A stretch of DNA of 52,541 nucleotides, filler included, from Jimgerdemannia flammicorona (lineage: Eukaryota), in the NCBI GenBank assembly GCA_003990765.1. It is 2 parts of 2 records of this genome, joined end to end, with 100 filler letters (N's around TTAATTAATTAA, not from the genome) between each part and the next. Parts side by side here need not be neighbours in the genome. Positions count along the whole stretch, not along the records: positions 1 to 26,221 come from RBNJ01000750.1; positions 26,322 to 52,541 come from RBNJ01000751.1. One strand, given 5' to 3'. Below the pieces are notes generated by a model. It made no database searches. It had not been told where the DNA came from and saw only the letters and a list, made by a program, of their open reading frames with translations. Position numbers and translations under genes: made by a program. Shown here piece by piece: positions 5,479 to 52,523 of this stretch. Position 1 is the stretch's first letter. Each line of letters opens with the position of its first letter.

Positions 5479-5491
5479 TCCTTTCCTCCTT
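5479..5491 (-). other. Polypurine tract of B1
   Basis: AAGGAGGAAAGGA immediately before the 3' LTR. Confidence 0.85.
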
Positions 5492-6311
5492 AGAAATCAA
5501 CATCCTTGTTGATTCAGAAATTGAGAACCAGGGGAGAGAAAGGTGGAGAATCAGGGTTGTTGCCATCTTCTTCAGTAGTAGGGAGAGTGGTTGCTAATGG
5601 CTTGCTGTCCAGAGTGGAGAAGTCAATGAGGTCTGCAAATGGTTCTTGCATAGAGATGGACACTGGTGTAGGGGTTCTCCATCTAATGTGGTTAGGACCA
5701 TCCAAGTATGATTCTTGGTCTTCATGCCTGGGAATATCCATTCAGATAGGCAGTCTTTTAAAGAGGTCAGAGAGGCCTTGGAGCCATTGGTCTGGGTTAT
5801 CATTCAGAAGGGGGCTCCAGTAGGGTTCACAGTTAGTAGACTTGAGGGTGATCCAGGAGTTGGCTTCTTGGGCTACCTTGATCTCTAGCTCATCAATCTT
5901 GGGGAAAGAGAGGTTCTGGAAATCCTTTAGTTAGACATAGTTGAGGTTGGGGATTGCAAAGAGTATATGGTGTATGATTTGATGAACCTTCTTGATAAGT
6001 CTTTGCTCATGTCTGTCCAAGTGGGTCCAGTCAGAGACCTGGTCAGTGGGTAGGCCAATTGTATGTTGGAGAAGCTGGTGACTGATTTCATATTCATACC
6101 AGATCTCTAGGCAGCTGGTGGCAAGGTAGGCTCTTTCAATCAGTTCATAGCAGTCAAGAACATACTGTCCTAGGTCTGGGCTGGAGAGGTTAAGGGCCTC
6201 AGAGCAGCAGTTCCTTCTCTGGATAGCAACCTAGATGTGTCCAAAGAGGTGGTCAACCTGGCTTGAGAGGGGCTGGCTATGGCAGGCAGTTTGGCAGTGG
6301 GTAGTGGGCAT
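5490..6311 (-). pseudogene. B1 3' accessory ORF (~273 aa, unknown function)
   Basis: One frame from ATG 6311 (MPTTHCQ...VDHLFGHI.VAI...LEIWYEYEISHQL...LSFPKIDELE...PYWSPLLNDNPDQWLQGL...) to TAA abutting the PPT; internal stops are transition-type; homologous copy at 51169-51979. Confidence 0.75.
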
Positions 6312-6375
6312 TCTTGTCTTGTCTTTTCTTTGTGAGAAAAGGGAGATAAGAGTTGCAGGGTATTCTTGTCTTGGG

Positions 6376-6383
6376 TATTTATA
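6376..6383 (-). promoter_or_regulatory. Internal TATA box upstream of the B1 accessory ORF
   Basis: TATAAATA ~65 nt upstream of the ATG; also present in copy B2 near 51095. Confidence 0.6.
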
Positions 6384-6949
6384 CTTATTCACCTATCTGG
6401 TGTGACTTTTTTTTCAGTCACGCTTTCCAGCAAAATGTGTGACCTATTGCTATAAGTGGAGTATGTGCTGGTTATATGAGAAAATCCTGATTTCAAAGAT
6501 ATTATCACTCATAGTTATGGTTACACAGGGTTAACAGGTCTTGGTCCTCTTTTTTTTTGTCTGGTCAGCACATTTGTGAGGACTGACCATCCTTGTCTAG
6601 GGTGAGGACTCCCATTATCATGGCTGGGGGTTTGAACCTCTCAGAAATAGACTTTCTTATAATCCAAGGTAATTCCTAGTAACAATATCTATCACATGGA
6701 TGGACTTAGACTGGTTTTGACACCATTAGCTTTCCTAAGTTCCACATAAAGCATTTGTCATTATCTAGCAGAGATGATACAGATGGCATGAAATAGAGTT
6801 GTTTAAATACATTTTGCTGTACTGTGCTAGATTGTTTTTCACCTGAGTGTCTTCTCATTGATTATTCATAGTGTTTCTTTTTCTGCAATATTCAGTATTA
6901 TATATTTCCAGATAAAATATGTAATATCCTTCTGCTCACTATGTACTCC

Positions 6950-9900
6950 AATTCTTAGAGCTGTAGTTTCTTCCTTTGCTAGAGATTGAGTGTTTCCATG
7001 TAGTCCTGGAGGGCTTTATGTACATTCTTCAGAGTTTCTTCTTTTTCTCAGGTGGCATCATGGGTGGAGTAACCCTTCTACTTGATCAGGAAAAACCACT
7101 TGACTGTTTTGGGATATTTGCAGACCTTGTGGTCAAGTACTTCCTCAATTTCGAATTCCTCATGATCATTGATCCTAATTGGGGATAGTGGTAGAACTGT
7201 ATGCTCAGGGAATGGGTTCTCATAGTAGTCTACCAATTGGCTGATATGGAATACTGGGTATACTCGGATATTGTGAGGAAGTTCCAACTTATAGTTGACT
7301 TTACTGACTTTTTTCACAATCTTGTATGGTCTAATTCTTCTAGCTCAGAGTTTCTTAGCTGGTTGTTGTGCTAGAGTGTCTGGGTGGAGGTGGTCTGTTC
7401 TAAGCATAACTATGTCACCAATGTTATAGGAGACTTCTCTTTGCTTCAAGTTCACATACTTGGTCTGGTAGTCTTGTGCTTCTATAAGAGCATCTCTTGT
7501 CATTCGGGTAAGGTCAGAAATGGTCTCAGCCAGATCTTGGACTACTGGGACTGCTGATTTTGCAGTAGTACTTGGGGTCCTTGGGTGTTGACTGTGGTTC
7601 AGGAAGAATAGAGTCTTCTTTATGGAGGTTTGCTGACTGTTGTTGTAGGCAAACTCAGCATGGGCTAGGTACTTGTTCCAATCATTTTGCTTATAACAGT
7701 AGAAGATACTAAGTATCTGTTTGAGAGTCCTGTTGGTTCGCTTTGTTTGGCCATCAGTCTGAGGGTAGTAGGTAGTAGAGAACTTCAGCTTGGTTCCATG
7801 GAGGGAGAAGAATGCCTTCTAGAAGTTGCTTGTGAACTTGGCATCTTGGTCAGATACAATAGTACTAGGCATGCCATGTAGCCTGAATACTTGATTGAGA
7901 AAAATCTCAGCAATCTCTGGTGCTGTAGCAGTGGTCTTGGTGAGTGCAAAGTGGGCTTGTTTACTTAGACAGTCTACAAATACTACAATGGCATCTTATC
8001 CTGCCTTGGTCTTAGAGAGTTGGACAATGAAGTCCATTGCAATCTGATCCCAGTTGTGATTCAGGATAGGCAAGGGTTGTAAGAGTCCTGCTGGTAGCTT
8101 GTTACCACTTTTGAACCTTTGGTACATCTCACATAAGGCCACAAAGTCTTTGATGTCCTTGGTCATTTTTGGCCAGTAGAACTCTCTTGAGAGGAGGTTG
8201 TAGGTTTTTTCAAAACCAAAGTATCCTGCTGCAGGAGTATCATGTAGTTCCTACATGGTCTTGAGTCACAGAGTATCATTATTGGGTACAACCACTCTGT
8301 CATAGTCTCTATAGATAAGTCCATCACAGTAAGTGAATCTCTTGGACATTTACCTCATGAGTTCAGGGATCTCAGCTTCTGAGTTTTGATAGAATTAGAG
8401 GAATTTCATCAGGGGGCTATCCTGCTGATAGCTATCCTTGATCATCTGGGTCAGATCTCCAATTACCTCGACTATGAAGACAAGTTCACTTTCATGTATC
8501 TGGAGAAACCATCAGATATACAGTTGGTTTTACCTGGGATATACTTGATTTCCATATCAAAGTTGGTAATAATTTCCATCCAGCAGGCTTATCTGTGGGT
8601 CAACATGGGCTGTGTGTGAATATACCACAGAGCATGGTGATCAGTATAGACCACAAATGGTTGTCCTAGGAGGAAATGACACCATTCCTGGAGTGCAGTA
8701 ATAATGGCCAGGAGTTCCTTCTCATGGGTGGTATATCAGGTCTCAGCTGGCTTGAGTTTTTGGAAAAGATAGGTCACTGGACAGTCTTCTTGGCTGAGCA
8801 CTGCTCCAATAGCAATGTCAGAGGCATCTGTGATCAGAGTGAATGACCTGGTAGGGTCAGGTGCAATTAGCACTAGGGTCTCAGTAAGGAGTCTCTTGAG
8901 ATGGTCTATAGCTAGAGTGTATTCAGGGGTCTATTTGGTTTTGATGTTCACTCCTTTGTAGGCCAGACTGGTCAATGGAGCTGCAATAGCAGAGTATCCT
9001 TGGATAAACCTTCAGTAATAATCAGTAATATCCACAAAGCACTGTAGTAGCTTGAGGGTAGTAGGGATAGGGATATCCTTAAGGGCTGATACCTTTTGGG
9101 GGTCTATATTGATACCTTCAGCAGAGATGATATGTCCTAGATACTCAATCTGGTCTTGATAGAACTTGTATTTGCTCATCTTGGCATAGAGCTGGTGTTC
9201 TCACAGAAGGGTCAGTACTTGTCTGAGGTGTGTATAGTGTAGCTCTACTATTTCACTGTAGATTAGTATATCATCAATATATACAAGAACACAGATGTTG
9301 AGGAGTGGTCCAAAGATATCATTCATCAGATACTGGAATGTTGCTGATATATTGGTCAAACCAAAAGGCATGACTCAGAACTGGTAGTGTCCAAATCGTA
9401 TTCGGAAAGCTGTTTTTTCAATGTCCTTCTCATCAATGAGAATCTGATAGTAGTCATTTCGCAAGTCTAGTAGGGAAAAGGTCTTGGCCTTGAAGATTTG
9501 ATATAGCAACTCATCAATCCTAGACAAGGCATACCAGTTCTTGATGGTGATCTTGTTGAGGGCTCTGTAGTCAATACACATTCACAGAGAGCCATCCTTC
9601 TTCTTGACAAATAGAATAGGGGCTCTAAATGGAGAGCAGCTAGGTTTAATGTATCCTTGAGCCAGTAGTTTGGTCAATTCATTCTTGAGGGTCTTGAGCT
9701 CAGGTTGGGCCAGTTGATAGATACTCTTATATGGGGGTTCAGATCCTGGAATAAGATCAATTCCATGTTGGATTTGGCACTTAGGTGGAAGTCTTTGAGG
9801 ATCTTGGAATATATCTTGGAATTCTTCAAACAGTTCTTGAGCTTCTGTTGGAATTGGGCTACTTGTAGCTTCAGTGACTTCTTGTACTGTATAGATAAAG

Positions 9901-10400
9901 TAGGTGTTTTCCTTTTTTTGAGAGAGTCTCTTCATTTGAATGGCAGAGATGATTTCAATCCCTTGGTGGTTGGTACCTTCCTGGGGTGTCAGAGTGATCT
10001 TTCTGCCTTTATGGGTTAGATTAACCTTATTGGTTCTCCAGTTGATATCTGGGTTATGCTGGGTCAACCAGGCTTTTCCTAGGATAATGTCTTGTCCTGG
10101 GAGGTCTACAATGCTGAAGTCTAACTTCTCTTGATATTTGTCAATCTTGAGTAAGAGATCTTTGCAGATCTTGGTCAATGGTATAGTTTTACCATCACCA
10201 AAGGTAACACTTCTTTTCTTGGTGGCTGGTCTGCTTCAGACTCCAATCCTCTTAGTAGTCTTGGTGCTGATATAGTTTCCAGTAGCACCACTATCAAGCA
10301 AGACATTGACATTCTGTCTGTGGACTTGGCCTGTGAACTTGATACAACTGTTCTCCTTCTTGATAGTGTTGAGCTCTTCATCTTCATTATTGTCTCAATT
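6950..10400 (-). pseudogene. pol: B1 pol: protease, RT, RNase H, integrase, chromodomain
   Basis: DIILGKAWLTQHNPDINW (PR); [20 protein letters not shown] and YIDD (RT); YPVFHISQL (IN); EEFEIEEVLDH (chromodomain). Confidence 0.92.
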
Positions 10401-10504
10401 GCTGTCAGTCTCCTCAAAGTCAGTTTCTCCCCATCCTTTACAAGGAGGGTTGTCTTGTTTAGGTTCCTCAGTCTGTTGGGCTTGGCACTTCTTGGATTGA
10501 ATTT

Positions 10505-10630
10505 TGAAAACTTTGGAGAGACATGCATGGCATTCACCAACATGTTCCATGTAGTATATTCGAATAGAATGAGGGCATTATCCACATGGTGCATAACCAT
10601 CTGCAATTCTCTTATACCAGTTTTCATCAT
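10505..10630 (-). other. C-P-H-x12-C-x2-C module in B1 (between dUTPase and protease)
   Basis: Manual translation DENWYKRIADGYAPCG*CPHSIRIYYMEHVGECHAC. Confidence 0.7.
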
Positions 10631-10669
10631 CTTCCTTCATAGTAGTGACCTTTTTACTGGGAGGTTTGT

Positions 10670-11090
10670 TGGTTGATCCAAACCCTTTCTTGCTATGGTC
10701 TGTCTGAGAGAGCTTGGGGACTTCTTCAATGGTGAGATCTTGACAGATTTCTTCAATGATTGCTTGGGCAATCCTTTGGCCTGTTTTGACTTCAAATGAG
10801 GTATCTCCAAAATTTCACAAGATGACATGGATTTTGCCAGTAAATCCTTGATCAACTACTCCTCCTCCTAGCCCAATGTTGAACTCTTTAGCTAGGCTGC
10901 TTCACTCAGCAAGGCAGATGTATATACCTTTGGGAGCTTGCATTGTAATTCCTATTCACACTGTACCATTGGTACTTGGTGGAATGGTGAGGTCTTGGCT
11001 GCTGTAGAGGTCATATCTAGCATCAGTTGGGTGGGCCTTAGTGGGGATGGTAGTCTTGTACTATATCTTCTATACTTTGATGACATTCTC
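10670..11090 (-). pseudogene. dUTPase domain of B1
   Basis: Manual translation PTKAHPTDARYDLY...SSLAK...GGVVDQGFTGKI...GQRIAQ...KKGFGST (dUTPase motifs I-V). Confidence 0.88.
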
Positions 11091-11099
11091 AGGGTTCTT

Positions 11100-13000
11100 C
11101 TTTCTTAGACCTTCTCTAATAACAGTAATGTTCTGGTTACTGGATTCATCTAATCTGTTTCTCTTCTCAAGGCATTTGAATGAGATGTATCCTGCCTTCT
11201 TACAGATGAAATACAATTCTTTTTTATGAAGCTGCTTCTTTTCATCCTCAGTGAGAGGTCTAGGTCCTCTGGGGTTTCACTGGTTCTTTTGATCATTCCT
11301 TTGATCATATCTTTGGTCATTCCTTTGATCATTTCTCCTGGTTGGGTTTCTCCTATCTTGGTTATCCTTCTTGTGTTCTTGATTTCATAGAGCTTGTACA
11401 GCAAGGATTTCACAGGCTCTTCTTTGTACTTGGGCAAAGCACTATGAGTAGTGGGGACATCCTTGGGGAAGACCTTGTTCCTTGATCTTCTGGGTGAGCC
11501 AGTCTGGTAGAGCTGCAAAAAGATGGTTAGCTCTGGTACTATTGATGGCCAAATTGTTCTCCTGGTAGGTAAGTCCAACAGTTTTGAGATAGGCATTCAT
11601 TCTGGTAGCAAAGGTCTCTAGATCCTCCTTGCCATTCTTATGGAACTTTATCTGGAACAGTTTGTTCCAGGTTTCTTATATATAGGCTGCATTTCAGAAT
11701 TTGGTCAGTAGCAAGATCTTGAGTCCTGGGCCTGCTTCATAGTCATCCCAACCTGGTCTATTGTTGGCAGGTACTTATCCATTGACTTGAGGGCAGTCTT
11801 CCCAGATTACTAGGTGTTGTTCCAAGGTTTGCCAGAATTTGGCTACTGTTCCAGTGAAGAATGTGGCTACTGTTTCTACTTGTGCTGCTGATGTGGCAAA
11901 CAGCTATTGAAGGGTGTTGTTCTGGTTGTTGGTGAGCATTCCTATAGGTACTTGGTTGTTATTCCATTGGTTTGCTCAGTAGTCTGTATCAACTACATTG
12001 ATGAAGTTTTTAATGTTGCTGTTTTTTCCACTGAATGTTGGAATTCGCAAGGTCTTGGTTGGCTTGTTCTGTTCAGCAATCTGTCCTACTATCTCTGCTA
12101 GTACTGCTAGCTGGGTAGTCAGTACTGCAATATTGATATCTACCATTGTATTGACTATTGGTAGTAGACCTGTAGGGGTGGATTCTCCTGAAGATTGTTC
12201 TGCTTGGTAGAGTTGTGGTGCTGTGTGACTTGGAGTTACTTGATTCCCAGATATCAGATCAAAGAGTCCTGTGAGAGAGGGTAAACCAAACCTCTATATA
12301 GGTGGCTAAGTTAGTTCTGGGGTCTGATCTTCTTGACCTGTGGTTCTTTGATAAATTCCTAGGTCTGCTGTTCCTAGTTGGCTATCATCAGACTGGTAAT
12401 CTGTAGAGTCTTTGTCTGACTCTCTTTCCTGATGAGATAGTACATCCTTGTACTGACTAGGTCCTTCAAAGAGGATATCAGTCTCTGGCTAGGTAGATGG
12501 GCCTGCTCCTTGTTCAGCAGTAGAAGATGGTTGGCCTGCTTGCTCGTTCTCATATCTGGTTATGGTAGAGACATAGTATACAACTAGCCTATAGTAGAGG
12601 GAGGTCTTGGTAGGAGTATGATGATATCTGTCAGAGGCAATCCACTCGGCAGCTGCTTCTCTTGCAGCAGGGGGTGTGATATAATCTAGAAAATCCTGGG
12701 TGGCTGCAGCAGTAGATTCTGGAGTCCTAGTGGTTCCAATGTGTCCTCGGAGGAGTTTGTAGAACCTACAGCAGCTAACTATATTCCTAAGTCCTGGGTG
12801 GTAAGTCCTAAAGGTCTGGTATAGATTCTTGTAAGTCTGATCAATTACAAGCTGGTGGGTTCTTGGGTCTGTGGTTTCCTGGTACCACCTGATCCTAATG
12901 GTAAGAGCTTCTCTGGCTCTGTTTGAGGATCCACAGTTGATTCTGAGGATTACTCCTGTCTAAGGTTGGTCTTGTTCCAACTTCAGGAATATGTTCTCAG
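11100..13000 (-). pseudogene. gag: B1 gag with long N-terminal extension and decayed CCHC knuckle
   Basis: Knuckle YFICKKAGYISFKC near 11172-11220; capsid-like region ~11400-12050; N-terminal motif AAAEWIASDRYHHTPTKTSLY. Confidence 0.75.
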
Positions 13001-13023
13001 TACCTTCTTGGCTGGTAATCCGC

Positions 13024-13752
13024 TGCTATAACTCTCACTTCTACCCCTCTCTTATCCTTTGGATAATTAGGGAAGTAAGACTATTACTTAGAGACTTAGT
13101 ATACAAGAAGCCTTCAGTTTGAGGAAGTACTCGCTTATAAGTAGTTGTAGTAGTAGTACCTTCTGTTTCAAAGGTCTTTCTCTGGTGTGCCCTATTTTCA
13201 AGGGTCTTATTATTTGCTGTGCACAGACTGAATTTGCCTTGGAATTCAGGTTCAATGGGTTTACTTAAGTCTTTAGGGATTTATATATCAGTCTCAGTTC
13301 TGGCAGAAGTTAGCTAGGCTTCTGGAGTTTAGTCAGAAACACTAGAGTCACTTAGGTATCATTACTAAGACTCAGGGGAATGTGTGTGTGTGGAAGGGAC
13401 TTGATTCTTGTATCAAGGACTGAACTAAAACTGCTTTATTTTGGATGGAAACTGGGGGGTATTTATACAAGTTGGTCCATGATTTCTGACTAAGTATGAG
13501 TGACTAATTTGGTAACTATAATGAGGTTTGTGATCACAACCTTTGTCAGGTGGTTTTTGGCAAAAACAACTTTGTGATCAGGACCTCAATTACTAGGCAA
13601 TGATCAGCTGCTGTGGCCACACTTGCTGCGGCGCCGATTGTTGGGGATAAGCTGGATATCGTTTTTCGCGTCATTCGTATGCCGCGCTCGATCGTATGAT
13701 GACGTCATCGCTCGCCGGGTCACGTGATCGCTCGTCGCGCCTCGTTCTAACA
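13024..13752 (-). repeat. 5' LTR of B1 (729 bp)
   Basis: Direct repeat of 4722-5478; TATAAATA at 13460-13467; followed by TSD GGCTC. Confidence 0.95.
13698..13727. promoter_or_regulatory. CRE-like palindrome GATGACGTCATC (13698-13709) and E-box TCACGTGA (13720-13727) in U3
   Basis: Exact palindromes within the only CpG-dense patch of the window; binding not demonstrated. Confidence 0.5.
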
Positions 13753-40239: not shown

Positions 40240-40318
40240 GTGATTTCCAGATTTGTTCAGAGGTCGTGTGTGATTTCAGTGGCTTGTTCAGAGGGTGATG
40301 TGTAATTTCAGTGGCTTG
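40240..40318. repeat. Imperfect ~31-bp tandem repeat (about 2.5 copies) at the U3 start of the A LTR
   Basis: GTGATTTCAGTGGCTTGTTCAGAGG-like units; also at 48600-48678. Confidence 0.7.
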
Positions 40319-40335
40319 GGGGTTGTGCGCTTACA

Positions 40336-40349
40336 ACTCTCCCCTTCTT
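40336..40349 (-). other. Polypurine tract of A
   Basis: AAGAAGGGGAGAGT abutting the 3' LTR. Confidence 0.88.
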
Positions 40350-43300
40350 AGCTTTCGATGTCCTTGTCAGGGCCTTCTAATTTGTTCAGTGGTACAGGGA
40401 AAATAGGCTTGCTTTCTGTTTTGCCATTTTTCCAGAGGATCGGTATTCTTGTCTTGTTTTGCTGAGTTCTTGGTTTGGTTCGCAATAATTATAATGTTTG
40501 GGAGGATAATATATAGTATGTACCGATAGGTGCGAGAGTATTTGGTTCTTAGTTGTTTAAGGAATCATATTCCTGAACTAGGTCGGTAGCATTCTGGAGA
40601 TTGGTCTTCAGTTCCCAGGTTGCATCATGGATTGGATAACCTTTCCATTTGACAAGGTACTCAGGGTGGCTTTTGTTGCCATGTTTGTTGAGGATTTATT
40701 CAACTTCGTACTCTTCTTGATCATTAATAATGACAGGTGCAGGTAGTTTGGTAGTCCAGTTTGGAAATAGCTCATCATCATTCTCATTGTATCACTTGAG
40801 ACATTGAACATTAAAGACCGGGTGAATCTTAATGGTATCTGGTAGTGCCAATTTGTAGGAGGTTGGAGAGACTTATGCAATGACTTCAAATGGTCCAATG
40901 AATTTGCTGTTCAGCTTTGTGGATGGTCTATGCTTGAGGTTGTCAACTTAGTATCCTCTGATGTCCAGAAGAACATTTTCTCCAATATCAAAAGTTTCTT
41001 CTCGGCAGTGTTGGTTAACATACTGTGACTGTTGTTCTTGAGTTCATGATATATTCTCAATGGCAATCTGGCTTAGATTGTGCATTTGGAGTAAGAATTC
41101 TTCAACAGCTTCTACTGTGGAGGGTTCCTCAGTGGTTCAGATAAGTGTCAAAGGGGTGTTTGGGTTTTGTCCAGTGTTGGCGAAGAATGGGGTCATTCCG
41201 AGAGAGGCTTGCTTGCTATTGTTATAGGCAAACTCAACTGTAGTGAGGTGTTTATGCCAGTCATCTTGTCTATAGGAAACATAGTTCCTTAGCATTTGTT
41301 CCAGAGTTTGGTTCATTCTTTCAGTTTGGCCATCAGTTTCTGGGTGAAAGGCTGTGGATAGTACAAATTTTGTTCCAAGATGTGCATGGAGGGCTTTCCA
41401 AAAATGGCTGGTGAATTTTGGGTCTTGGTCACTAACAATGATCTTGGGAAGACCATAATAGTGGAAGATGTTATCAAACAAGAGTGTGGCTATGTCTGGT
41501 GCTGTTGCAATAGTGGTAGTAGGCACAAAGTGGGCTTGTTTGCTAAGATAGTCTATAAAGACAACAATTGCATCTTTCCCATTCTTGGTTCAGGGTAGTT
41601 GTACAATGAAGTCCATAGAGAATTGTTCCCAATTAGCAGATGGTACTGGGATAGGGTGAAGTAAGCCAGGTTTTGCTAGTGTTGAGGACTTGTTTTGTTG
41701 GCAGACATCACAGGAAGTAATGTAGGTTTTGAGCTGATCTGCCATGTGGGGCCAATAGAAGTTTCGAGAGATAACTTCATAACATTTATCAAATCCTAAA
41801 TGTCCAGCTGTAGGAGCATCATGACATTTGAATAAGATAGTCCTTTGGAGGTCTCGGTTGTTTGGGACATACAGTCTGTCTTTATAGTAGATAGCATTGT
41901 CCTTCAGTTGGTATTGATGATACTGTGTATACTTGTCAGCATTATCACTATTCAGGAATTCTTGCAGTGCTTGAGCTGCCTTATCATCGGCACATGCTGT
42001 GATAATTTGTTCTATGATGGAGTTTGTAACCAAGGTGAGAGTTTGGATAACCTCTTTGATTGGTGGTCTGGAGATTGCATCAGCAATAATTTTTTCCTTA
42101 CCAGGGCAGTACTGGATTTCATAGTCAAAGTTGGTGAGGACTTTCATCCATCTGGCTTACTTTCAAGAAAGGGTAGCCTGTGTCTTGATGTTGACTAATG
42201 ACTTGTAGTTGGTCAATACAGTAAAGTGAGTAGGGTTGCCATTTGATCAGAGTATCTACAATGGCTAGCATCTCCTTCTCATGAGTTGCATAGTTGATTT
42301 TGGCATCATTGAACTTGTGGAAGTGATAGGCCACAGGGTGTCCTTCTTGTATGAGTACTGCTCTAAGGGCTAGGTCAGAGACATTAGTGGTAACTTCATA
42401 TAGTAGTGCAGGGTTTGCCACTTGAAGTACTGGAGTGGTTATCAGGGCATCCTTTAGTGCTTGAAAGGCGGTATCTTACTCAGGTCCCCAAGTTACAAGA
42501 TTGTTGAAATCTTTCTCTTGTTTTATAGTCCAGGGTTGTTCTTGTTTCTTGCTATGGTTGGTCATTTGGGTGAGAGCAGTAGCAATTTTAGCAAAGTTGG
42601 CAACAAATCGCCTGTAATAGTTTGCTAATCCCAGGAATGACTGGAGGTCTTTCAGCTTCTTGGGTCTGGGCCAATCCTTGATTGCAGAGATTTTGCTGGG
42701 GTCTACTTTAATTCCATTTGGAGTGATAATGTGTCTAAGGAATTGAATTTCTTTCAGAAGAAATTCACACTTACTGAGTTTTGCAAAGAGTCGGTTTTCT
42801 CGGAGTTTCAGTAATACTAGTTCAAGGTGTTCAAGATGTTCCTCCAGGGTTTTGCTGAAGACTAGGATGTCGTCAATGTAGACAACAATGAATTTGTCCA
42901 GGTATGGATGCAGAATGGTATTCATTAATGTCTGGAAGGTTTCTGGAGCATTAGTTAAGCCGAAGGGCATAACCAGGAACTTGAAGTGTCCATAGCAAGT
43001 TTGGAAAGCTGTCTTGTAGATATCTTCTTCTTTCATAGCAATTTGCCAGTAACCATTTCGCAGATCAAAGGAGCTCATGAATTGTGGGTTGGTAAGTCTA
43101 TCGAATATTTCATCGATCCTCAGTAGTGGGCAACAGTTCTTGATAGTCTGTTCATTGAGATTGCAGTAGTCAATGCATATTTACAGGTCTCCTCCTTTCT
43201 TGACAACAAATAGGACTGGTGCACCATAAGGTGATACACTGGGTCTGATGAATTCTTATTCTAGGAGTTCATCAATTTCTTGCTTGAGTGCATCGATTTC

Positions 43301-44039
43301 TCTCAGAGACATGTGGTAGATTGACTTGAAGGCTGGTTTGGCATCTGGGATAGTCTTGATGACATGGTCTACTACTCATTTAGGGGATAGGCCTTTCAGG
43401 AGCTTCTTTGGGAATATATCTCGAAATTTCTAGAGTAATGGTCTGACACAGTTGTTAACTTTGGAAAAATCCTCTTCAGAATTCTCAGGTTCTCCTTTGG
43501 ATAGGCGGATAGAGATGGCGAAGAGTGGGCATTTCTTGGCCAATTTCTTAAATTGTAGCTTATTGATGTGGGTGATCTTTGGTCCAGGGTCACCAGAATT
43601 AAGTGGGTCTTTTTCGCCTTGCAGTTTGAAGTTGTGGCATCCCTTCTTGATGGTCAGAGAATGGTTTACCCAATCAATCATGGGGTTCTCTTGTTTTAAC
43701 CATGGAGTTCCAAGGATGATTTTATTGTCAGGAAGTGGTACGATTTGAAGGGTAACATATACTCGGTAGTCAACAATTCGGAGGGGTAGATTGCAAACTT
43801 CTTTGCTAATAACATGTGAGGTTCCATCAGCTGTAGCAACTGCTTGAGTTTGCTGTACTGGAGAGGTAAAGACCTTGAGTCTGTTGGCTGTCTCTTCATT
43901 GATGAAGTTGCCTGAGGCACTACTATCTATCATAATCTTGACAGGTGCTTGGTTGACAAAAGCCTTAAGTGTGAGCAGTTTGTCTGATCCAATGGTGGTA
44001 ATTTCAGTTGTGGGAGCTTTCCTTCTGTTGGTTCTTCTT

Positions 44040-44170
44040 TGAGCCAGTTCATTGATACAAAAGAAGCAATCATCAATCTTTCGGGAAGAGTACATTCCAA
44101 TGCCATGGGGACATCAGCCACTTGGTACATATCCATCTTCGATTTTCTTGTAGAATTGTTCTTCTTTGCT
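44040..44170 (-). other. C-P-H-x12-C-x2-C module in A (between dUTPase and protease)
   Basis: EEQFYKKIEDGYVPSG*CPHGIGMYSSRKIDDCFFC. Confidence 0.75.
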
Positions 44171-44189
44171 CATGGTAGGTTGGGCTGGG

Positions 44190-44605
44190 GCCTTGTTGGA
44201 TGAGCCAAATCCTTTGGATCCTCTGATGGTGGGCAATAGTTCAGGGACTTCCTTGACTATCAGAGTTGACTCAATTTTTTTGAATAGGATCTGGGCAATG
44301 CAGAAACCAATAGGGATCTTGAAGGGTGTCCAACTGTGGTTTCGGATGAGGACAATAATTTCGCCTATGTAATCCTCGTCAATGACTCCTCCTTCTACTG
44401 AGAGTCCTTTCAATGCTAGGCTGTTGCGAAAGCATATTCTTCCAACATGTCCTTCAGGGATTTGGATGCTGATTCCTGTGTAGACTTGTTTGACTTCTTT
44501 GTTGGAAACTGTAGCTTCTTCGGCTGCATACAGGTCATATCCAGCTGCTTTCTGACTTCCTTTGGTTGGGGCCTTAGCAGTTTGTCTTAACTTGACAATG
44601 TCCAG
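44190..44605 (-). pseudogene. dUTPase domain of A (uninterrupted reading frame)
   Basis: AAGYDLY, RNSLAL, GGVIDEDYIGEI, IAQIL and RGSKGFGSS in ORF 44114-44698. Confidence 0.95.
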
Positions 44606-46617
44606 TATTCTGGTAGTCAGATTATTGAGGTGGTGCAGAGTGGTAACAGTTGCTCTTGTTGCTGTCCATGGTTTTTGGTTAGAGCAGGCACTGGCCATGT
44701 GTCCTGTCTTTCAGCAGTAGAAGCATTCTCCACTTCTTTGAAGTTCATTCCTTTCACTCTCAGTAAGTTTCTTGAAGGTACTTGGCTGGGTAGGTTTATG
44801 ATTTCTGAGTGTCCAAGAGGTGGATGTAGAGGGAGCTCAGGATGCTTCATGCTTGGGTTCTTCTTTCTTGATCCAAGTCTTTTCCTTGTTGTTGAATTGT
44901 CTTCGGGGCAGAATTGGTCCAGCTGTTAGGATTCGCTTGACCATAGTCTTGATTCTTGCCAGGCACTATTGTTGGTGGTCGCAACCAACTGGGTGGCCTT
45001 GTTCTCGGATTTTTCTAGTAAGCCATTCAGGCAGGGCATTGAATAAGTGGTCTGCTCTTGTACCATTTTGTGCTTCATCATTGGCAATATATCCTAGGCC
45101 AACAGTATTCAGGAGTGACTTAAGTTTTGTACAGAAGGTTTCGAATTCTTCTTTGCCATGTACATTAAATTTGCGGTTGTGGAGTTTTACTCGAGATTTA
45201 GCAATCATGGTTTCACTACAGTATTGAGCAATCATGAGTTGTTTGAGTCCAGGGGCTGCAGGATGGGCTCCATATCCTAGGGCATTGTTTGCTGTATTCT
45301 GAGCAACTACTGCAGGTCGGGTATCCTATGTGAGGGGTTTTTCAGAAAGAGTTCACCACCATTCTTCAGCAGGTCCTTGAAAGAATGTAACAACTCAGCG
45401 GATATAGGCTGTAGTGATAGCAAAGAGTTGTTCCAGAGTGTGGTCTTGATTGTTTGTCAGAATGCAGTCAGCAACTTGCTCATTAGTCCATTGATTGGCT
45501 TTGAAGTTGGTGTCAACTACACTAATGAAGCTTTGGACTTCTTGTGCAGTACCATTGAAGGTAGGTAGGCTCAGATTTTTGGTAGGTCAGGTCTGTTCAG
45601 CTAAGGCAGTAATGGTTGCTGCCATTATAGCTACTTGGGCTATGAGATTAAGAATCTGTTGGTTTACCATGTTATTTGCTGGAGGTGGTTAGACTGCTGG
45701 TAGTAGTGTTACTGGTACTACTTGAGGTACTGGTGCAGAGTGTGATGGGGTTCTTTGGGTCTGTGTAAGTTGCTAGAGTAGTAGTTGTGGATCTGGAGTA
45801 AGGGCTTGATAGATAGCTGTTTGTTATTGTGTAGGTATATTCTGTCCTGATGGGAGTGTATCTCCTTCTGTGGTATATCTGGGATCGAATTCAGTGAGAT
45901 ACTCCTCCTCCTCTTCAGTTTGGTCCTCATGTAATTGGGTTTGCTTGGCATCAAAGTAGACAGAATCAGTTATATATCTGATTTCGGAGGGACTTAATTC
46001 AAAGTCAAGTTCAGGTTTGGTATTAGTTTTGAAATCAGGTAGGGCTGTAGCAGGGCCTACTTCAGGTTCAGGGTTGGGTAGTTGATGAAGGGTTTCTCTT
46101 GCTTCTTCTTTAAGAATATGGTGGGCCTTGCTGTTCTGGAATCAGTAGTATAATGCAGTCTTGGTCCTAGTATGGTGAAAGTCAGTAGAGTTGAGCCACT
46201 TGGCTACAGAGGCTTGGGCTTCATGAGGAACTAAGGCTAGGAAGACTGCTGCTGGTTGTCCTAGGTCACTCGGATTTGTGGAGCTGACAAAACTCTTGTT
46301 GAGAAGAGTAAAGAAGGCTTCAATAAGACCTTCTTCATCTTGACTTGCTGGGTATAGTGCAAGGAGTTTGGTGAATAGGGTTTCACCTATTTGCTAATTT
46401 AACCAGAGTACTTCTTTCTTTGAATGAAGTTTATCCCACTTATTGCAGGTGTGGAGGTCAAAATGTCCTTGTACATCAGGTTCAATTCTCTCCAGATTGT
46501 CAGATGGTTCAGGATAAATTCCAGTTCAGAGGTTGGGCTTTATACCAACTTATAGGAATTCTCAGAAGGGTTTGTAGTGGGGTGAGGAAGCATCTTGAAG
46601 CAGAATTGGATTGTAAA

Positions 46618-46629
46618 CCACTGCTACCA
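46618..46629 (-). other. Primer-binding site of A, tRNA-iMet-like
   Basis: TGGTAGCAGTGG starting 3 nt inside the 5' LTR. Confidence 0.7.
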
Positions 46630-46632
46630 AGT

Positions 46633-48695
46633 TGTAAGAGGGTTGCTTTTTAGGGTAACTGTTACGTAGTTCTGGAAAGGTTTTCTGGAAGTTCTGGATA
46701 TTCTGGAAGACCATTTTCTTTATGGTCAAGATCAATTTCATATGGAGTATGTCCTCTATGCTTATTGATTTCAAGATCAGGTTGACGTCTCAACCAAAGT
46801 CCTTCTTCGGACTAGTTCTGGATGTTCAGGATTTCCGTATTTCAGGAAGTTCAAGAAACTAAGACCAGCTCAGTTGAATTGGCATATCGCTACAGACAAT
46901 ACCCAATTAGGAAATTTCGTGATGGGGTTAGGAGTAGGACCTAATGGGGAGTGGATTTACTTAAGGGTGGTTTGTGGGTTATTTGAATAGGTTTATTCAC
47001 TATTCATGATATTGCTATACTAGGAGTAGTTGTGTAAAGGGATATTGTGGGGAAGTATTCAAGAATGTTCTTTTATATTCAAGTCTGAGATTCTGAGGTC
47101 TGGGGGTGGGGGTATTTATACTAGTGAGGGGCTATCTGGACTATGCTGAATATGGATATAGTACTAAGTGCTTTGCTGAGTCGGAATGCAGTCACATAGT
47201 ACAAGTGTGATCTGACATTTCAAAAGAGCATCTGGCTGCTGAGTCAGTTCACAGTCACATCATACAAGGCTAATCTAACTATACTATGACTGCTAGGCTA
47301 TTTATGAGTTTAGGCACTATCTGGGTAGTCCTCGATGATATCACCATCGATTGCATCATCTCTGATGAAGTAGTCATCCAGGAAAAGTGGTTTGCGGATT
47401 ACTTCTCCTTGTTCACTGAGGTAATAATACATTGGAACTTTGTCTCCATCCCACAAGATGGCATCATCTGTCTCATATACTGGATAAGGTATTGGTGGGC
47501 AAAGGAGGGGTGCTTCATCTTCACTTTTATTGGATTTGTTGTCTGCATACCTTCTGTAGGTTACAGCACTATGAGTCATAGGGTTGTAGTAAGCTGGTGG
47601 CTGTGGTTCATGTCACTCGTACTCAGGTGGTAGAGTGGTTGGTTCAATCTTGAGGGTTGTCTGGAGGTACAGATTGTGTTCTCCGGTCTCTTTATTGTAG
47701 TTGAAGTAATCAGGGGTAAATGCGGGTTGGTATTCGTGCTAGTGGTCATTGTCCCAATAAGTCTTGTATGCTATTATGAATTGTTGTAAGTTCATTGGCA
47801 AGATTGGTGGTGTGATCAGGGTTGGCAGAAATCCTTGGCTAGAGGTCATGTCGGCATCAGAGGGATCATTGTCTTCTGCTTCATCTTCATTGAAGTGAAT
47901 TATATCATAGATATCCTTTATGGTATATCCAACTTGGGGCATTTGCAGAATATGATTGTTGGGGTGTGGGAAGGTTCTGTCTGTGGTTTTGACGTACTCG
48001 AGGTACTTGTGGTTGAGTTCTTGTATCATGTCATCAATTTGGCCATAGGACAGGGTAGCAACCATTTCACTAGTAATAACTCAGAGGCGGGGAATAATGG
48101 TACTGTACTCGTAGAAGAGTTCTCGATGTTTGCAGGTGATGAGCTTCTGGTGTTGAGACATCTGGGTAATGTCTGTATCATGGTGGTGTTCAACCATGTC
48201 TTCCAGGAGGCAGCTGATCTGGTAGTAGCTTGAGATTTGTCTGATTCAGTGGGCCTTGCTAAGTATGTTCAGAGCATTCCATCAGGCTTCCACGAAGTAG
48301 AGGGGTGCTAGACTATGGATATTCATGAGGGGTAGAGGGGGTGTGGCTCCATTGACAATGGCATTCCAAATATTGACACGGATATAGGTATAGATCTTGG
48401 TGGTCATATTTGTGTGTTTGTAAGTTGTGGTTGTTGTTTGTTTTGGTTCTCTGATTCGATACATCTCAGTGCTCAGTATATATGCATTTGGTCCTGATTG
48501 GTAAGATTCCGTTTGTGTAGATCTTGTATTCTGTGACTTCGTATTGACTTAGCTTTGTGTACTGTAACTTTGGTTTGACTCAGCTTCATAATCAAGCAGG
48601 TGATTTTCAGATTTGTTCAGAGGTCATGTGTGATTCCAGTGGCTTGTTCAGGGGGTGACATGTAATTTCAGTGGCTTGGGGGTTGTGTGCTTACA
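46633..48695 (-). repeat. 5' LTR of A (2063 bp)
   Basis: Direct repeat of 38273-40335. Confidence 0.97.
47310..48407 (-). pseudogene. LTR-encoded accessory ORF of A, 5' LTR copy
   Basis: ORF-track pieces 48282-48464, 47739-48065 and 47310-47579 share one frame. Confidence 0.8.
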
Positions 48696-51600
48696 AGTAT
48701 ACTCAGACTATAAATTTTCTCAAAAGACCCCTTACTGAGACTTTTGTACTAATTATATACTACTCTACTAGGTCTCTCACTTTGATCATAGATGTCTCTA
48801 ATATTGTCCCTTAAGTAGTACTTAGCCAAGAAGATTACTCAGTGGCCTATCTCTCCCAGAAGCTTAAGCCAGCTAAGACCCAGTATTCTATTTATGAGAT
48901 AAAACTCCTGGTCATTATTACTGTACTCTAAAAATAGTATTACTTTCTCTTAGGATAATTATTTGTAGTCTATACTAATTACTATACTCTGTGGTATATT
49001 TATATATAGCTCATACTAACTTATAAGCAAGTCCATTAGATGGAAATTATTGCCTCCTTTAATATAAAAATCATATATATTCCAGACAAAACCAACCATG
49101 TGGCTGATGCTTTCTCCAGATATATATAGAATTAGCTTGTCTTTATAATCAAAGTAATTGATAATATTACATCAGATTATCAAGAATAGCTACTAACAAG
49201 ATAGTCTCCTATTGAAATTCCTTCAACTCTATCAAGACCCTGAGGTTGAGGTCCCAGAACCTATTAAAAGGATGATCAAAAGATTTATATATCATGATAG
49301 ACTCATCAATAGAAGATTATAACAGAGTGGTAGTATTCAAAGATAATACTCTATAACTTAAGATAATGCAGAAACTCTATGATACTCCTGTAGCAGAATA
49401 CTTTAGTTTCAAGAAGACCTATAATCTTCTCTCAAGAGAGTTCTACTAGACAAGGAGGATCAAAGATATCAAATCTTTTATAGTTTCATATGAAATATTC
49501 CAAAGATTCAAGAGTAGTAACAAACTATTAGTAGGACTTCTGTAACCTTGGCCAATCTCTAGCTATAATTGGGATCAAATTATAATAAACTTCATTGTCT
49601 AGCTCTTTAAGACCAAGGTAGAATAAGATGCCATCATAGTATTTATAGACTGTCTGAGTACATAAGTCTACTTTATATCTAGTAAAAATCACTGCTACAA
49701 TTTCTGAGATTGCTAAAATCTTTCTCAACCAAGTATTTAGACTATATAGCATATCTACATATGTACTATTATATCTGACTGAAGTGCCAAGTTTACAAGC
49801 AACTTTCAGAAGATATTTTTCTCTCTATATAATATCAAACTGAAGTTTTTCACTACCTACTACCTCTAGACAGATGGTCAGACTGAGTGAATCAATAGAA
49901 CTCTCAAGTAGATACTCAGTATCTTCTACTGTTATAAGTAAAATAATTAGAATAAGTCTCTGGTATATATTAAGTCCTACAATAATAGCTAGCAAACCTC
50001 TATAAAGAAGATCTCATTCTTTCTAAATTATGATCAATACCCAAAGACTCTAAGTACTACTGCAAAATCAGTAGTTCTAGCAGTTCAGAACTTGGCTAAG
50101 ACCATTTCTGATCTTACACAAATGACAAGAGATACTCTTATAGAAGTGTAAAACTATTAGACAAAGTATACAAACTTGAAGTAAAGAGAAATATTCTATA
50201 ATAATAGTAATATAGTTATACTCAGAACAGACTACCTCTATCTAGATAGTCTAGCCTAGTAACTATCTAAGAAACTCTGTATTAGAAGAATTAGACTATT
50301 TATATAAGATTGTGGAAAAAGTCAATAAAGATAACTATAAGCTATAACTCTCTTATAATATTTGAGTTTACTTAGTATTTCATATCAGTCAACTGGTAGA
50401 CTACTATGTAAATATATTTTCTGAGTATATAGTATCACCACCACCCCCAATTAGGATCAATAATCATGAGAAATTTAAAAACAAGAAGGTGCTTGACTAT
50501 AAGATCTGCAAATATACTAAAACAGTTAAGTGGTTTTTCCTCATCAAGTAGAAGAGTTATCCTACTTATGATACTATTAGGAAAAAGAAAGAAGTACTGA
50601 AAAATATACATACAGTTCTTTAGAACTATATGGAAACACTCACTCCATAGTAGAGAAAGGAATGCAGCTCTAAACTTAGAGGTTATAGTAAACATAATAA
50701 TAATATATATTTATCTGAAATATATAATATTAAACATTAAGAGAATAGGAATACTATAATTAGCCAATAAGATAAAAAGATTATTCTATTAAAGAACTTT
50801 TTCAGATCTCTTATATATAGTTAAATCAGAAAGACCATTCAAACTAATATAATATATAATAACTATACTGGTATATCAGTGGCCACAGAAAGACATCTAG
50901 TTGTATTTGAATTCTCAGTCTGTAGCCTGGAGAACAATGTCTTAACAGAGTGACCAACTCTCCATCTAAAGTCAAAGAAGGATATTTCAAACCAGTAATA
51001 CTCAGTATTTTCCATATAACTAACACATACTTTATGTATAGCAATAGATCTTATATTTCTTTCAAAATAAAGTCACACCAGATTGGTGAAGAAATATAAA
51101 TACCTAGGATAAGAATACACTACAATCTCTATCTTCTTTTTCTCTTTCTAAAGAAAAATAATATAAGAATACCTACTATCTGCCACCAAATAGCCTGCCA
51201 TAGCCAGCCCTTTCTAAGCCAGATTGACCACCTTTTTAGACACATCCAGGTCACTATTCAAGGAAGAAACCACTGCTCTAAGACTCTTAATCTCACTAGC
51301 TAGAATCTAGAATACTATATCCTCAACTACTATAAAGTTATTAATAGGGTCTATCTTACTACCAGCTATCTAGAAATCTGATATGAATACAAAATTAGAT
51401 ACTAACTTCTCTAATGAGTATAAGATCAAACTGCTGACCAAGTTATAGACTAAATCCACTTAGATAGATATGAGTAAAGACTAGCCAAAAAGGTTTACCA
51501 AATTATATAGTATATATCTTTTATAATCTCCAACCTCAACTATGTATAACTGAAGAACTTCTAGAATCTTATCTTCTCTGAGATCAATGTACTAGAGATC

Positions 51601-52523
51601 AAGATTGCTAAAGAAGTCCTCTCCTAGATCACTCTTAAGTTTTCTAATTATAAACTGTTCTCTCTTGAATGACAACTTAGACCAATGGCTCTAAGGCCTT
51701 TCTGATCTCTTTGAAGAACTACCCATCTGAATAGATATTCTCAGATATGACTAGCAAGTCTTCTACCTAGATGGTCCCAACTGTATTAGATGGAGGACCT
51801 CTATACCACTATCTGCAGATACTTAAGAACTATTTACAGACCTCTATATTTTATACTGAGCCATCAGCAACTACCCCTCTAATAACTGATTGTGAAGGTA
51901 ACTGTAATGAGATATAAAGGATGCCACAACTCCTCCCTTAGTTCTCAACTTTCAAATCAATATAAATTTTGATTTTTAAGAGGTGAAGAATATAATAGAA
52001 TAAACAAATAAGATATAATGAGTGATCACATAATCTAGCAATAATGTGGCATATAATAAATATAATAAATAAGATATAAAAAATATAGATAAAATGATAT
52101 TCAACTTATCTCTAGTAACTGGTACTATAGCAATCACTATAGCAACTGATTATTATCTAATAGTTTATAGTATAAAGGTTTTAATTATAAAGATCATCTA
52201 TAGTTACCAAATTAGTCACTCATACTTAGTCAGAAATTATGAACTAACTTGTATAAATACTGCTAATATTTCATTTGAAATAAAGTAGTTTTGGTTCAGT
52301 TCTTAATATATAAATCAAGTCTTCTCTCTATATACACATATTTCCCTAACTTTTAATAATGACACCTAAGTAACTCTAGTGATCTGACTAAACTTTAAAA
52401 GCCTAGCTAACTTTTACCAGAACTAAGACTAATATATAATTCCCAAAGACTTAAGAAAAGCCTCTTATTGAATCTAAATTTCAAGGAAAATTTAGTCTGT
52501 GCACAGTAAATAATAAGTCTCTT
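48696..52523 (+). mobile_element. Gypsy B2 continued (RH-IN-chromodomain, accessory ORF, PPT, partial 3' LTR from 51991), heavily decayed
   Basis: Colinear with the reverse complement of B1 ~8920-4920; very TpA-rich. Confidence 0.88.
51169..51979 (+). pseudogene. B2 3' accessory ORF
   Basis: Nucleotide homology to 5490-6311; ATG decayed to ATA; TAA abuts the PPT. Confidence 0.7.

Follow-up and report, generated by a model that had tools for sequence, protein, structure and literature searches.

The question raised by this locus is whether the open reading frames (ORFs) at the 3' ends of three Gypsy families in Jimgerdemannia flammicorona are the remains of an accessory gene, and whether the three families carry the same one. 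The window, i.e. the whole stretch of DNA analysed (52,541 nucleotides, filler included, from two genomic records joined end to end), consisted of nested, dead Ty3/Gypsy elements that carry a dUTPase and are depleted of CpG. In the reading developed below, its ORFs would be inactivated copies of a genuine accessory gene that belongs to dUTPase-carrying Ty3/Gypsy LTR retrotransposons and lies 0.5-0.7 kb past the pol stop on the same strand, terminating in family B exactly at the polypurine tract (PPT).

Carrier elements and their decay

Element B1 (4722..13752, minus strand) was a complete, decayed Gypsy chromovirus delimited by an LTR pair (~4722-5478 and 13024-13752, 87% identical) with TG..CA ends and a target duplication of 5 bp (GAGCC). 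Pfam domains and the extra ORF gave its contents as gag, dUTPase, PR, RT, RH, IN, chromodomain and extra ORF, the end of pol being marked by the integrase SH3 domain and the chromodomain at 6982..7329 (minus strand; Pfam Chromo 1.7e-6, SH3_Tf2-1 2.5e-10). Its PPT, AAGGAGGAAAGGA, was located at 5479..5491 (minus strand), with the 3' LTR (TGTAAT...) directly after it. A second copy, B2, was interrupted by the insertion of element A into two pieces, a left one at 38171-38272 and a right one running from IN to the 3' LTR (48696..52523, plus strand). The inserted element A (38273..48695, minus strand) was a complete Gypsy chromovirus with dUTPase, PR, RT, RH, IN and chromodomain (Pfam Chromo 1.1e-15), bounded by LTRs of 2,063 bp (38273-40335 and 46633-48695; 92% identical, TG..CA) and the target duplication ATACT, with its PPT at 40337-40349. 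The best database match of its RT was 94% identical; among the 120 matches listed, all named ones were plant chromovirus fragments (46-58% identity), in a search that covered proteins of 128-410 residues only and therefore favours fragmentary plant gene calls. A fungal host is probable from the dUTPase and chromodomain type and from PMC2864245.

Element C (32200..38170, plus strand) was 5'-truncated and retained PR, dUTPase, RT, RH and IN. The repeat search gave no LTR partner for it and Pfam no chromodomain; since this copy is very decayed, it is called here a Gypsy element that may or may not be a chromovirus. The Pfam order of element A (RVP_2, RVT_1, RT_RNaseH_2, Integrase_H2C2, rve, i.e. 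PR-RT-RNase H-integrase) was the same in the preserved parts of B1 and C. The sequence-only reading had attributed to C a pol architecture unlike that of A and B, and this was upheld by the succession PR-dUTPase-RT, chromodomain not found, as opposed to dUTPase-PR-RT-RH-IN-chromodomain. Excerpts of a study of fungal chromoviruses by Novikova et al. (2010, PMC2864245) place the dUTPase either at the pol N-terminus or between PR and RT, which corresponds to the layouts of A/B and of C, respectively.

All copies of the accessory ORF in the window were inactivated, mainly by C-to-T and G-to-A transitions. The two LTRs of element A differed by 154 transitions and 7 transversions, CpG observed/expected ratios ranged from 0.00 to 0.21, and A/T positions of the window were mostly G or C in related metagenome contigs. 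Of the sequencing runs listed, only three soil-metagenome DNA runs contained small shares of the window, and none was an RNA run.

An accessory gene in families B and C

Both copies of B and element C had in common an ORF of ~270 codons on the pol strand, about 0.6-0.7 kb downstream of pol. In B1 it extended from 6311 to 5490 (minus strand; 273 codons and a terminal stop, interrupted by 4 internal stops), its ATG being ~670 nt past the pol stop and its TAA overlapping the PPT. The B2 copy (51169-51979, plus strand) was heavily decayed, with 22 stops, one frameshift near 51660 and a start codon that is now ATA, and the C copy (36946-37751, plus strand) had 11 internal stops and one frameshift near 37425-37431. 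Re-translation agreed with the coordinates and peptides proposed earlier for B and C, and the blocks LEIWHEYEI, AKKxHQxFRHxP, NPxLQDNPDQWLQG, GPPIR, DLIxF and PxVLNF(LL) were found in all three. The idea that the gene occupies different positions held for B, where it immediately precedes the PPT and 3' LTR, and for A, where it lies inside the LTR; C has no detectable LTR.

The similarity between B and C, which had been called strong, was far above chance: B1 and C aligned by BLASTP at 69.3 bits (E=2e-19; 46/152 identical, ungapped) and, in their C-terminal part, at 31.2 bits (E=2e-6). In the six-frame control the claimed frame obtained 82 bits, about twice the score of the next best frame pair (42 bits). 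A profile built from these two types matched 5 of 1,835,955,588 library proteins at a cut-off of E<=0.001 (E 3.4e-78 to 2.8e-7). These relatives, of 138-342 residues, were stop-free and unnamed and all came from short contigs. A profile of them recovered in turn the ORFs of B1 (260 bits, iE 1.2e-79), B2 (113+49 bits) and C (132+110 bits) with hmmsearch. A single relative could be viewed together with its flanking DNA: the metagenome contig L001 showed an intact copy of 291 codons followed by TAA, GGAGGGAGGA and TGTAAT, in the same layout as B1. L001 was also the single metagenome locus retrieved when related loci were searched with an alignment; viral contigs and prokaryote genome contigs yielded none.

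Substitution patterns were those of a coding sequence. In-frame pN/pS was 0.35-0.67 in 7/7 pairs and 0.61-1.49 when the same alignments were shifted by 1 or 2 bases, and the third codon position of the B/C-type ORF was the most variable; for B1 versus L001, NG86 dN/dS was 0.21, with dS saturated. Given the intact relatives, the retrotransposon context of L001, the frame-specific conservation and pN/pS values below those of shifted controls, the B/C ORF is a protein-coding gene kept by selection, as expected of the accessory protein family that had been postulated. A conserved non-coding 3' region translating by chance into similar peptides could explain why the window copies are full of stops and why some DNA-level similarity appears in other frames (the 42 bits being antisense), but this explanation is already contradicted by the intact relatives, the score of the sense frame and the concentration of changes at third positions with the lowest pN/pS in frame, and its probability is negligible.

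Database searches left the family without a name. None of the 11 ORF proteins reached any family cut-off of Pfam in a scan at E<=10, enzyme families of the rotifer type (GDSL esterase, DEDDy exonuclease) included, and PDB sequence profiles gave no match for B/C and 2 chance-level matches (E 0.28) for the A type. A homolog search with the decayed B1 protein produced 161 candidates, none of which scored. In the ESM Atlas, the B-type protein met only unnamed clusters at 0.89-0.92, recognition being under the usual bar. One cluster at 0.89 was from Mucoromycota, and is mentioned as a lead only. Full-text searches of the literature yielded neither an account of this ORF family nor a case of a retrotransposon LTR with an ORF inside it.

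The proportion of relatives bears on a further alternative, namely that the elements captured a fragment of a host gene and carry it as a passive passenger without a role in the life cycle. LTR retrotransposons do acquire foreign ORFs, as reported in the excerpted account of rotifer elements (PMC5408684). However, a mere passenger is quite improbable: the library of 1.84 billion proteins contained just five relatives, each on a short contig; the sole relative in context precedes a PPT and LTR start; the place of the gene is conserved in two or more pol lineages only 24-25% identical; and purifying selection is seen between element copies.

A gene inside the LTRs of element A

In element A, the ORF was found within both LTRs, at 38950..40047 in the U3 part of the 3' LTR (minus strand; 365 codons, 6 internal stops) and at 47310..48407 in the 5' LTR (minus strand; 365 codons, 5 internal stops). 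The sequence-only reading had located it correctly and had underestimated its extent, which really is 365 codons. It occupies LTR positions ~289-1384 of 2,063, downstream of the PPT; since the PPT lies upstream of the gene, the gene and its upstream region fall into U3 and are copied into both LTRs. Just one stop was common to the two copies. The LTRs aligned ungapped and the ORF frame was without shared stops over 324 codons, compared with 51 and 32 shared stops in the other two frames. Furthermore, the library protein P0017 proved to be an intact A-type homologue (E=1.1e-95, 61% identity, same C-terminus); it had no usable match in the ESM Atlas, where its model reached a pLDDT of 0.39. The LTR ORF of family A is thus also a real gene.

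Probable relationship between the A and B/C proteins

The assignment of A, B and C to one family stood for B and C; for A it failed at the pairwise level and was weak by profiles. Pairwise BLASTP between A and B/C was not significant (E 0.29, 0.074 and 4.3), and in a six-frame BLASTP control the claimed frame was no better than the rest. Profile comparisons with hhalign gave P values of 0.012, 0.008, 0.01 and 0.001 with probabilities of 4-21%, and the alignments were collinear, the one at P=0.001 covering 124 columns from the N-terminus. No column-shuffled profile (0/100) reached the real score of 32.8 (null 14.5 +/- 2.2), a null that leaves the general likeness of helical proteins uncontrolled. 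In a six-frame hmmsearch with the B/C profile, the A ORF in its own frame was the top match outside B/C and the second LTR copy came next; against the profile of intact relatives it obtained 3.8 bits (iE 0.2), below B/C-type membership. The protein P0012 was considered as a bridge from A to B/C and rejected (hhalign P 0.57).

These data can be read as two unrelated accessory genes, B and C forming one family and A having independently taken another gene into the same place, the weak N-terminal likeness reflecting only the general similarity of helical proteins. The BLASTP values, the indifference of the six-frame control, the low hhalign probabilities, the absence of P0017 among the proteins retrieved by the B/C profile from the library of 1.84 billion, and the 230 C-terminal residues (two thirds of A) without counterpart in B/C all speak for this possibility, to which we give somewhat less than even odds. 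It accounts poorly for the collinear N-terminal alignment, the shuffling result and the ranking of both LTR copies, and A and B/C are also alike in gene position, in the distance of a TATA-like motif and in an acidic tail with EDEAP-type motifs. We therefore favor homology: the profile alignments suggest that A is probably related to B/C in its N-terminal third (~125 residues), and that its helical domain at the N-terminus would be a distant homologue of the B/C domain, an interpretation we prefer with limited confidence.

Putative internal promoter

A TATA-like motif preceded the ATG by 72-83 nt in B1, B2, C, L001 and both A copies. It read TATAAAT in B1 (6377..6383, minus strand; 72 nt upstream of the ATG) and B2 (51095..51101, plus strand; 74 nt upstream of the ORF start), TATAAAA in C (36863..36869, plus strand; 83 nt upstream of the ATG) and TATATA in the 3' LTR of A (40117..40122, minus strand; 75 nt upstream of the ATG), with a twin in the 5' LTR (48477-48482, minus strand). 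In L001, which is intact and GC-richer, TATA[AT]A[AT] occurred at -80. Its similar distance in all copies suggests an internal promoter, and the accessory gene likely had a TATA-type promoter of its own, giving a short mRNA that terminated in the 3' LTR, the call consisting of one short motif in AT-rich, decayed DNA where the heptamer has a background of 1.01 per kb per strand.

With such a background the motif could be incidental and the gene, real as it is, could be expressed from a spliced subgenomic RNA started at the 5' LTR promoter, in the manner of complex retroviruses. In each family the ORF is 3'-terminal in the genomic RNA, and the element layout is equally compatible with a spliced message. 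This model is possible, yet it leaves several observations unexplained: in two pol lineages the motif falls within the same 12 nt (-72 to -83), although the motif regions of B and C have no detectable DNA similarity (no blastn match); it is kept in L001; B1, C and L001 have no ATG between motif and start codon; and the 5' LTR copy in A lies in U3, upstream of the usual start of genomic RNA. We consider splicing the less attractive model and retain the internal promoter. To the joint reading, in which the B/C gene is under selection, the LTR ORF of A is a real gene, the window copies are inactivated and expression came from an internal promoter, we assign a probability of roughly 60%.

Protein features and possible role

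The sequence-only reading had noticed no env-like transmembrane segment, and indeed none of the seven ORF proteins tested by hydropathy showed an env-like signal peptide or transmembrane feature, the maximum 19-residue Kyte-Doolittle mean being 0.59-1.05 in 7/7. Full-length B/C-type members combined an N half of pI 5.8-8.7 with a C half of pI ~4.05-4.4. The recommended modeling with AlphaFold, followed by Foldseek, was performed on P0019: the AF2 model, built from 12 sequences and poor (mean pLDDT 49.4), placed helices in residues 21-152 and scored a pLDDT <40 in the tail. Searched with this model, Foldseek found no match at E<=0.001 in PDB and BFVD; among the 48,161 chains compared with VIA-align, the highest Z was 4.1 and none was >=5. 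Many winged-helix regulators figured in the VIA-align list and were set aside, Z values of 2.5-3.0 being no evidence.

Composition and short motifs, from which alone a role was read, would be compatible with a soluble regulator or adaptor, which we put forward tentatively and as a minority expectation. The helical N-domain would bind nucleic acid or protein, and the acidic disordered tail, with its hydrophobic motifs DLIxF and EAPxxLNFLL, would recruit a host factor. In a host where methylated CpG is heavily mutated, the protein would thereby promote expression of its own element or oppose silencing.

Comparison with known systems

Genes situated in or overlapping U3 are known from retroviruses, MMTV sag and HIV nef being examples. 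The gene of element A resembles these by its location in U3 and its duplication in both LTRs, a likeness of position only that concerns A only. Unlike Sag, a membrane glycoprotein, and Nef, which is myristoylated, the window protein lacks a membrane segment and gave no match by sequence or fold. In foamy viruses, an internal promoter drives the 3' regulatory genes tas/bet, which yield a regulator whose activation region is acidic. The likeness is that of a 3' accessory gene with its own promoter inside the element; in the window, however, the promoter is a motif alone, no homology to Tas was seen and a transactivator role is a guess. VANC proteins are anti-silencing proteins of VANDAL DNA transposons. 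By analogy, the window gene may likewise encode a non-enzymatic accessory factor of a transposon, in a genome where transposons are methylated, although the carrier is of another transposon class; nothing similar to VANC was detected, the B/C profile having returned five unnamed proteins from a library that may lack VANC.

Among LTR retrotransposons, the excerpted report on bdelloid rotifers (PMC5408684) describes ORF3 types shared between unlike retroelements. As in the window, these extra ORFs follow pol in dUTPase-carrying elements, and the same ORF type occurs in LTR lineages distant in pol, which points to modular exchange. The rotifer types listed there (env-like, GDSL esterase, DEDDy exonuclease) belong to identifiable families, unlike the window protein, which has no Pfam match and no membrane segment. 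For dUTPase chromoviruses of the fungal kind, the available parts of PMC2864245 only draw an 'add. ORF' of unassigned role, which may or may not correspond to the window ORF, that text giving neither its sequence nor a description, and passages of PMC3248453 mention, for complex nested elements, only 'additional domains'.

Possible mobility and significance

Between B and C, identity was 24-25% in pol and 29-35% in the accessory ORF; between B and A, it was 34-42% in pol, and the accessory ORF was barely alignable. These values hint that such genes travel between element lineages as modules, and fit an exchange of the accessory gene among lineages, three of which are represented here. A more ambitious interpretation, which we regard as doubtful, is that promoter and ORF would form a cassette traded among distant Gypsy lineages, able to settle in U3 and encoding a transactivator or anti-silencing factor. 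If true, a provirus would possess two expressed copies once the cassette is in U3, a helical binding domain would be coupled to an acidic recruiting tail, elements could multiply where the host methylates and mutates transposon CpG, and retrotransposons would have in this system their equivalent of VANC and of the 3' regulators of retroviruses.

To our knowledge, extra ORFs of LTR retrotransposons have been described before and few have a function. The accessory gene is an orphan addition to this known class. What is new is an orphan family definable by intact natural members, with evidence of selection and a likely promoter of its own, together with a displaced LTR border, by which element A has the gene in duplicate. 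It can now be tested in concrete terms whether a non-retroviral retrotransposon encodes a trans-acting regulator.

A nest of decayed retroelements

Nested dead retroelements make up the window. B1, a complete Ty3/Gypsy copy on the minus strand (~4722-13752), has LTRs that are 87% identical, TG..CA ends and a 5-bp duplication (GAGCC), and encodes a dUTPase, a protease (PR), an integrase (IN) and a chromodomain (Pfam Chromo 1.7e-6). A second copy of the same family, B2 (38171-38272 and 48696-52523, plus strand), is more decayed than B1 and is interrupted by element A (38273-48695, minus strand). Element A is complete as well, with 2,063-bp LTRs at 92% identity, the polypurine tract (PPT) AAGAAGGGGAGAG, an ATACT duplication, and dUTPase, PR, reverse transcriptase (RT), RNase H (RH), IN and chromodomain (Pfam Chromo 1.1e-15). 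Element C (~32200-38170, plus strand) is 5'-truncated; its order is PR-dUTPase-RT-RH-IN, a domain search found no chromodomain and a repeat search no LTR. Its pol architecture was thus correctly described as unlike that of A and B in the sequence-only reading that preceded this analysis. All three families carry a dUTPase (33303-33749 in C, 44117-44710 in A, 10581-10814 in B1), which precedes the protease in A and B and follows it, ahead of RT, in C. Both arrangements are reported for Postia placenta elements in PMC2864245, which locates the dUTPase of fungal chromoviruses either N-terminally in pol or between the PR and RT domains.

Decay was extensive, with a CpG observed/expected ratio of 0.00-0.21 in all blocks of the window. 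The LTR pair of element A differed by 154 transitions versus 7 transversions, and the changes affected CpA as well as CpG. At positions where B1 carries A or T, related contigs from a soil metagenome mostly carried G or C (321 A>G and 202 T>C sites in run X1), which marks the copies in the window as the mutated ones. Evidently the host mutates its own repeats by cytosine deamination, via methylation or a RIP-like process. This host may be a fungus, as its dUTPase-bearing chromoviruses would suggest. Natural intact relatives were used for comparison in place of a restored consensus. One soil-metagenome contig (run X3) links both LTR regions of B1 (4890/13159) and omits 8,268 bases; it looks like a solo LTR of family B at another place.

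The remaining blocks (1-4700 and 13750-32200) belong to a further retroelement family that differs from A, B and C in having a sense strand rich in G and A: their plus strand contains 29-37% C versus 12-14% G (GC skew -0.35 to -0.53). They hold minus-strand RT fragments at 2529-2918, 21098-21382, 27476-27874 and 28194-28475, and repeats ~6.7 kb apart starting at 19641 and 26339, also seen at 1-650. In its RT region, the 26339-32200 element carries a short inverted duplication (27653-27856 and 27994-28199; ~205 nt, 70% identical), with RVT_1 fragments on both strands. Two 44-N runs, read as gaps (26222-26265 and 26278-26321), adjoin a B-like fragment at 25522-26212 that matches B1 9273-9946 in opposite orientation, which leaves it uncertain in what order B2, C and the 26339-32200 element were nested across this gap.

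The accessory gene of families B and C

The peptides quoted by the sequence-only reading were recovered on translation. In B1 the ORF runs from 6311 to 5490 on the minus strand (273 codons, 4 stops); it opens ~670 nt past the stop of pol and closes with a TAA that overlaps the PPT preceding the 3' LTR. The ORFs of B2 (51169-51979) and C (36946-37751), both on the plus strand, are readable only across one frameshift and many stops each. The strong B-C likeness claimed was borne out by BLASTP of B1 against C (69.3 bits, E=2e-19, 46/152 identical, gapless; second segment E=2e-6), and blastn between B and C gave no match at 1e-10. When all six frames were compared with all six, the claimed pair reached 82 bits, against 42 for the antisense pair and at most 38 for the others; the likeness is therefore at the protein level and in the claimed frame. 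Blocks conserved over 12 aligned rows include LEIWHEYEI, AKKxHQxFRHxP, NPxLQDNPDQWLQG, GPPIR, DLIxF and a terminal PxVLNF(LL).

A profile built from the B and C pieces of the window was searched against 1,835,955,588 proteins (threshold E<=0.001) and matched five (3.4e-78, 1.9e-73, 5.1e-62, 4.5e-28 and 2.8e-7), all unnamed and without stops, from contigs of 0.9-4.8 kb (JGI/ENA). Viewed as DNA, one of them, the 1,535-bp metagenome locus L001, contains an intact 291-codon ORF followed by TAA, GGAGGGAGGA and TGTAAT, which matches the ORF-PPT-LTR junction of B1, terminal peptide IN.D.DF included. Since transition bias by itself depresses NG86 ratios, alignments shifted by 1 or 2 bases served as controls: in-frame pN/pS (0.35-0.67) was lower than in the shifted alignments (0.61-1.49) in 7/7 codon pairs, dS being saturated in several of them. 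Because of the stop-free relatives, the L001 junction and these ratios, the B/C ORF is a gene.

An ORF within the LTR of element A

The A ORF (365 codons from its ATG) lies wholly within the LTR, downstream of the PPT. Both LTRs had one and the same sequence when the element inserted, so only stops common to both can be old. The ORF frame has none over LTR columns 412-1384 (324 codons) and one over the whole ORF; counted over the LTR, the remaining two frames contain 51 and 32. An intact ENA protein of 247 residues, P0017, is 61% identical to the last two thirds of the ORF (E=1.1e-95), with the same C-terminal residue pattern. By these sequence features the A ORF, too, is a real gene, which from its place in U3 is present in two copies per provirus. 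Retroviral genes encoded in U3 offer an analogy for this layout.

Relationship between the A and B/C proteins

That A, B and C encode one family was claimed earlier, with A the more distant member. The B-C part holds, and A is indeed the more distant sequence and a tentative member only. Pairwise BLASTP of A against B/C was not significant (E 0.29, 0.074 and 4.3), the claimed frame was no outlier in six-frame BLASTP, hhalign probabilities were low (3.6, 4.9, 4.0 and 21%), and the last 230 residues of A had no partner in B/C. P0012, a protein tried as a bridge, failed to link the two in profile comparison. However, all profile comparisons returned one collinear N-terminal alignment (at best 124 columns, P=0.001), and with either B/C profile 0/100 column shuffles of the A alignment reached the real score (32.8 and 25.9, against nulls of 14.5 +/- 2.2, maximum 20.0, and 14.5 +/- 2.5, maximum 23.4). 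When a profile of intact database relatives only was scanned over the six frames of the window, the A ORF ranked first after the B and C copies, in its own frame (iE 0.2), followed by its second LTR copy (iE 1.7). The proteins are also alike in gene position, acidic tail and short motifs, among them DIIYFDEDEAED / DLISFSDDDDE and SEDEAPLL / DDDEAPLILNFLL. On balance, these alignments suggest a common origin of the A and B/C N-domains, with a probability of roughly 0.6.

A candidate internal promoter

A TATA-like heptamer precedes the start codon by 72 nt in B1, 74 in B2, 83 in C and 80 in L001, and both copies of the A ORF have TATATA at -75. The window-wide frequency of the heptamer is 1.01 per kb per strand, and blastn detected no DNA similarity between B and C upstream of the ORF. 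By our own rough, uncomputed estimate, the chance that both lineages, B and C, would have one heptamer within a shared 12-nt span is ~1e-4. No ATG intervenes between motif and start codon in B1, C and L001; A has one, out of frame. The ORF message could alternatively be spliced from a leader, with no internal promoter, but the motif positions point to a candidate internal promoter, which probably drives a short mRNA ending in the 3' LTR. The differing ORF positions, noticed from the sequence and upheld here for A and B, would on the internal-promoter reading reflect PPT placement: after the gene in B, and ahead of promoter and gene in A, so that the cassette would enter U3.

Protein properties and possible role

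A hydropathy scan revealed no membrane segment, as previously stated, and the proteins are therefore not env-like. The N half has a near-neutral to basic pI (5.8-8.7) in full-length B/C-type members. The C half is very acidic (pI about 4.05-4.4), and short hydrophobic or aromatic motifs occur in the tail. A structural model placed helices within residues 21-152 and predicted a disordered C half. Pfam, PDB-sequence, Foldseek, VIA-align and Atlas searches gave no link to any known protein, although fold searches say little with so poor a model (mean pLDDT 49.4). The foamy-virus internal promoter with Tas is an analogy for a regulator, and VANC for a regulator or anti-silencing factor. Our best guess, of low probability, is a regulator or adaptor whose binding domain and acidic recruiting tail would increase element expression or counteract silencing.

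Exchange between lineages and known systems

The B and C ORFs are 29-35% identical, above the identity of their pol (B1 versus C, 24-25% only). Pol is more similar between B and A (B1 versus A, 34-42%; 730 and 379 bits), yet the ORFs of these two are barely alignable. Over three lineages only, this pattern fits either an ORF swap between lineages B and C or rapid change in A after entry into U3.

Extra ORFs of LTR retrotransposons are a known class. Rotifer ORF3 is one case, of which PMC5408684 describes types common to unlike LTR elements that also have a dUTPase. Fungal chromoviruses have been drawn with an 'add. ORF' of unknown function by Novikova et al. (PMC2864245). A full-text literature search found no description of the present family. 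We rate it as an orphan ORF3 family within the known extra-ORF class, with a likely promoter of its own and a U3-resident form.
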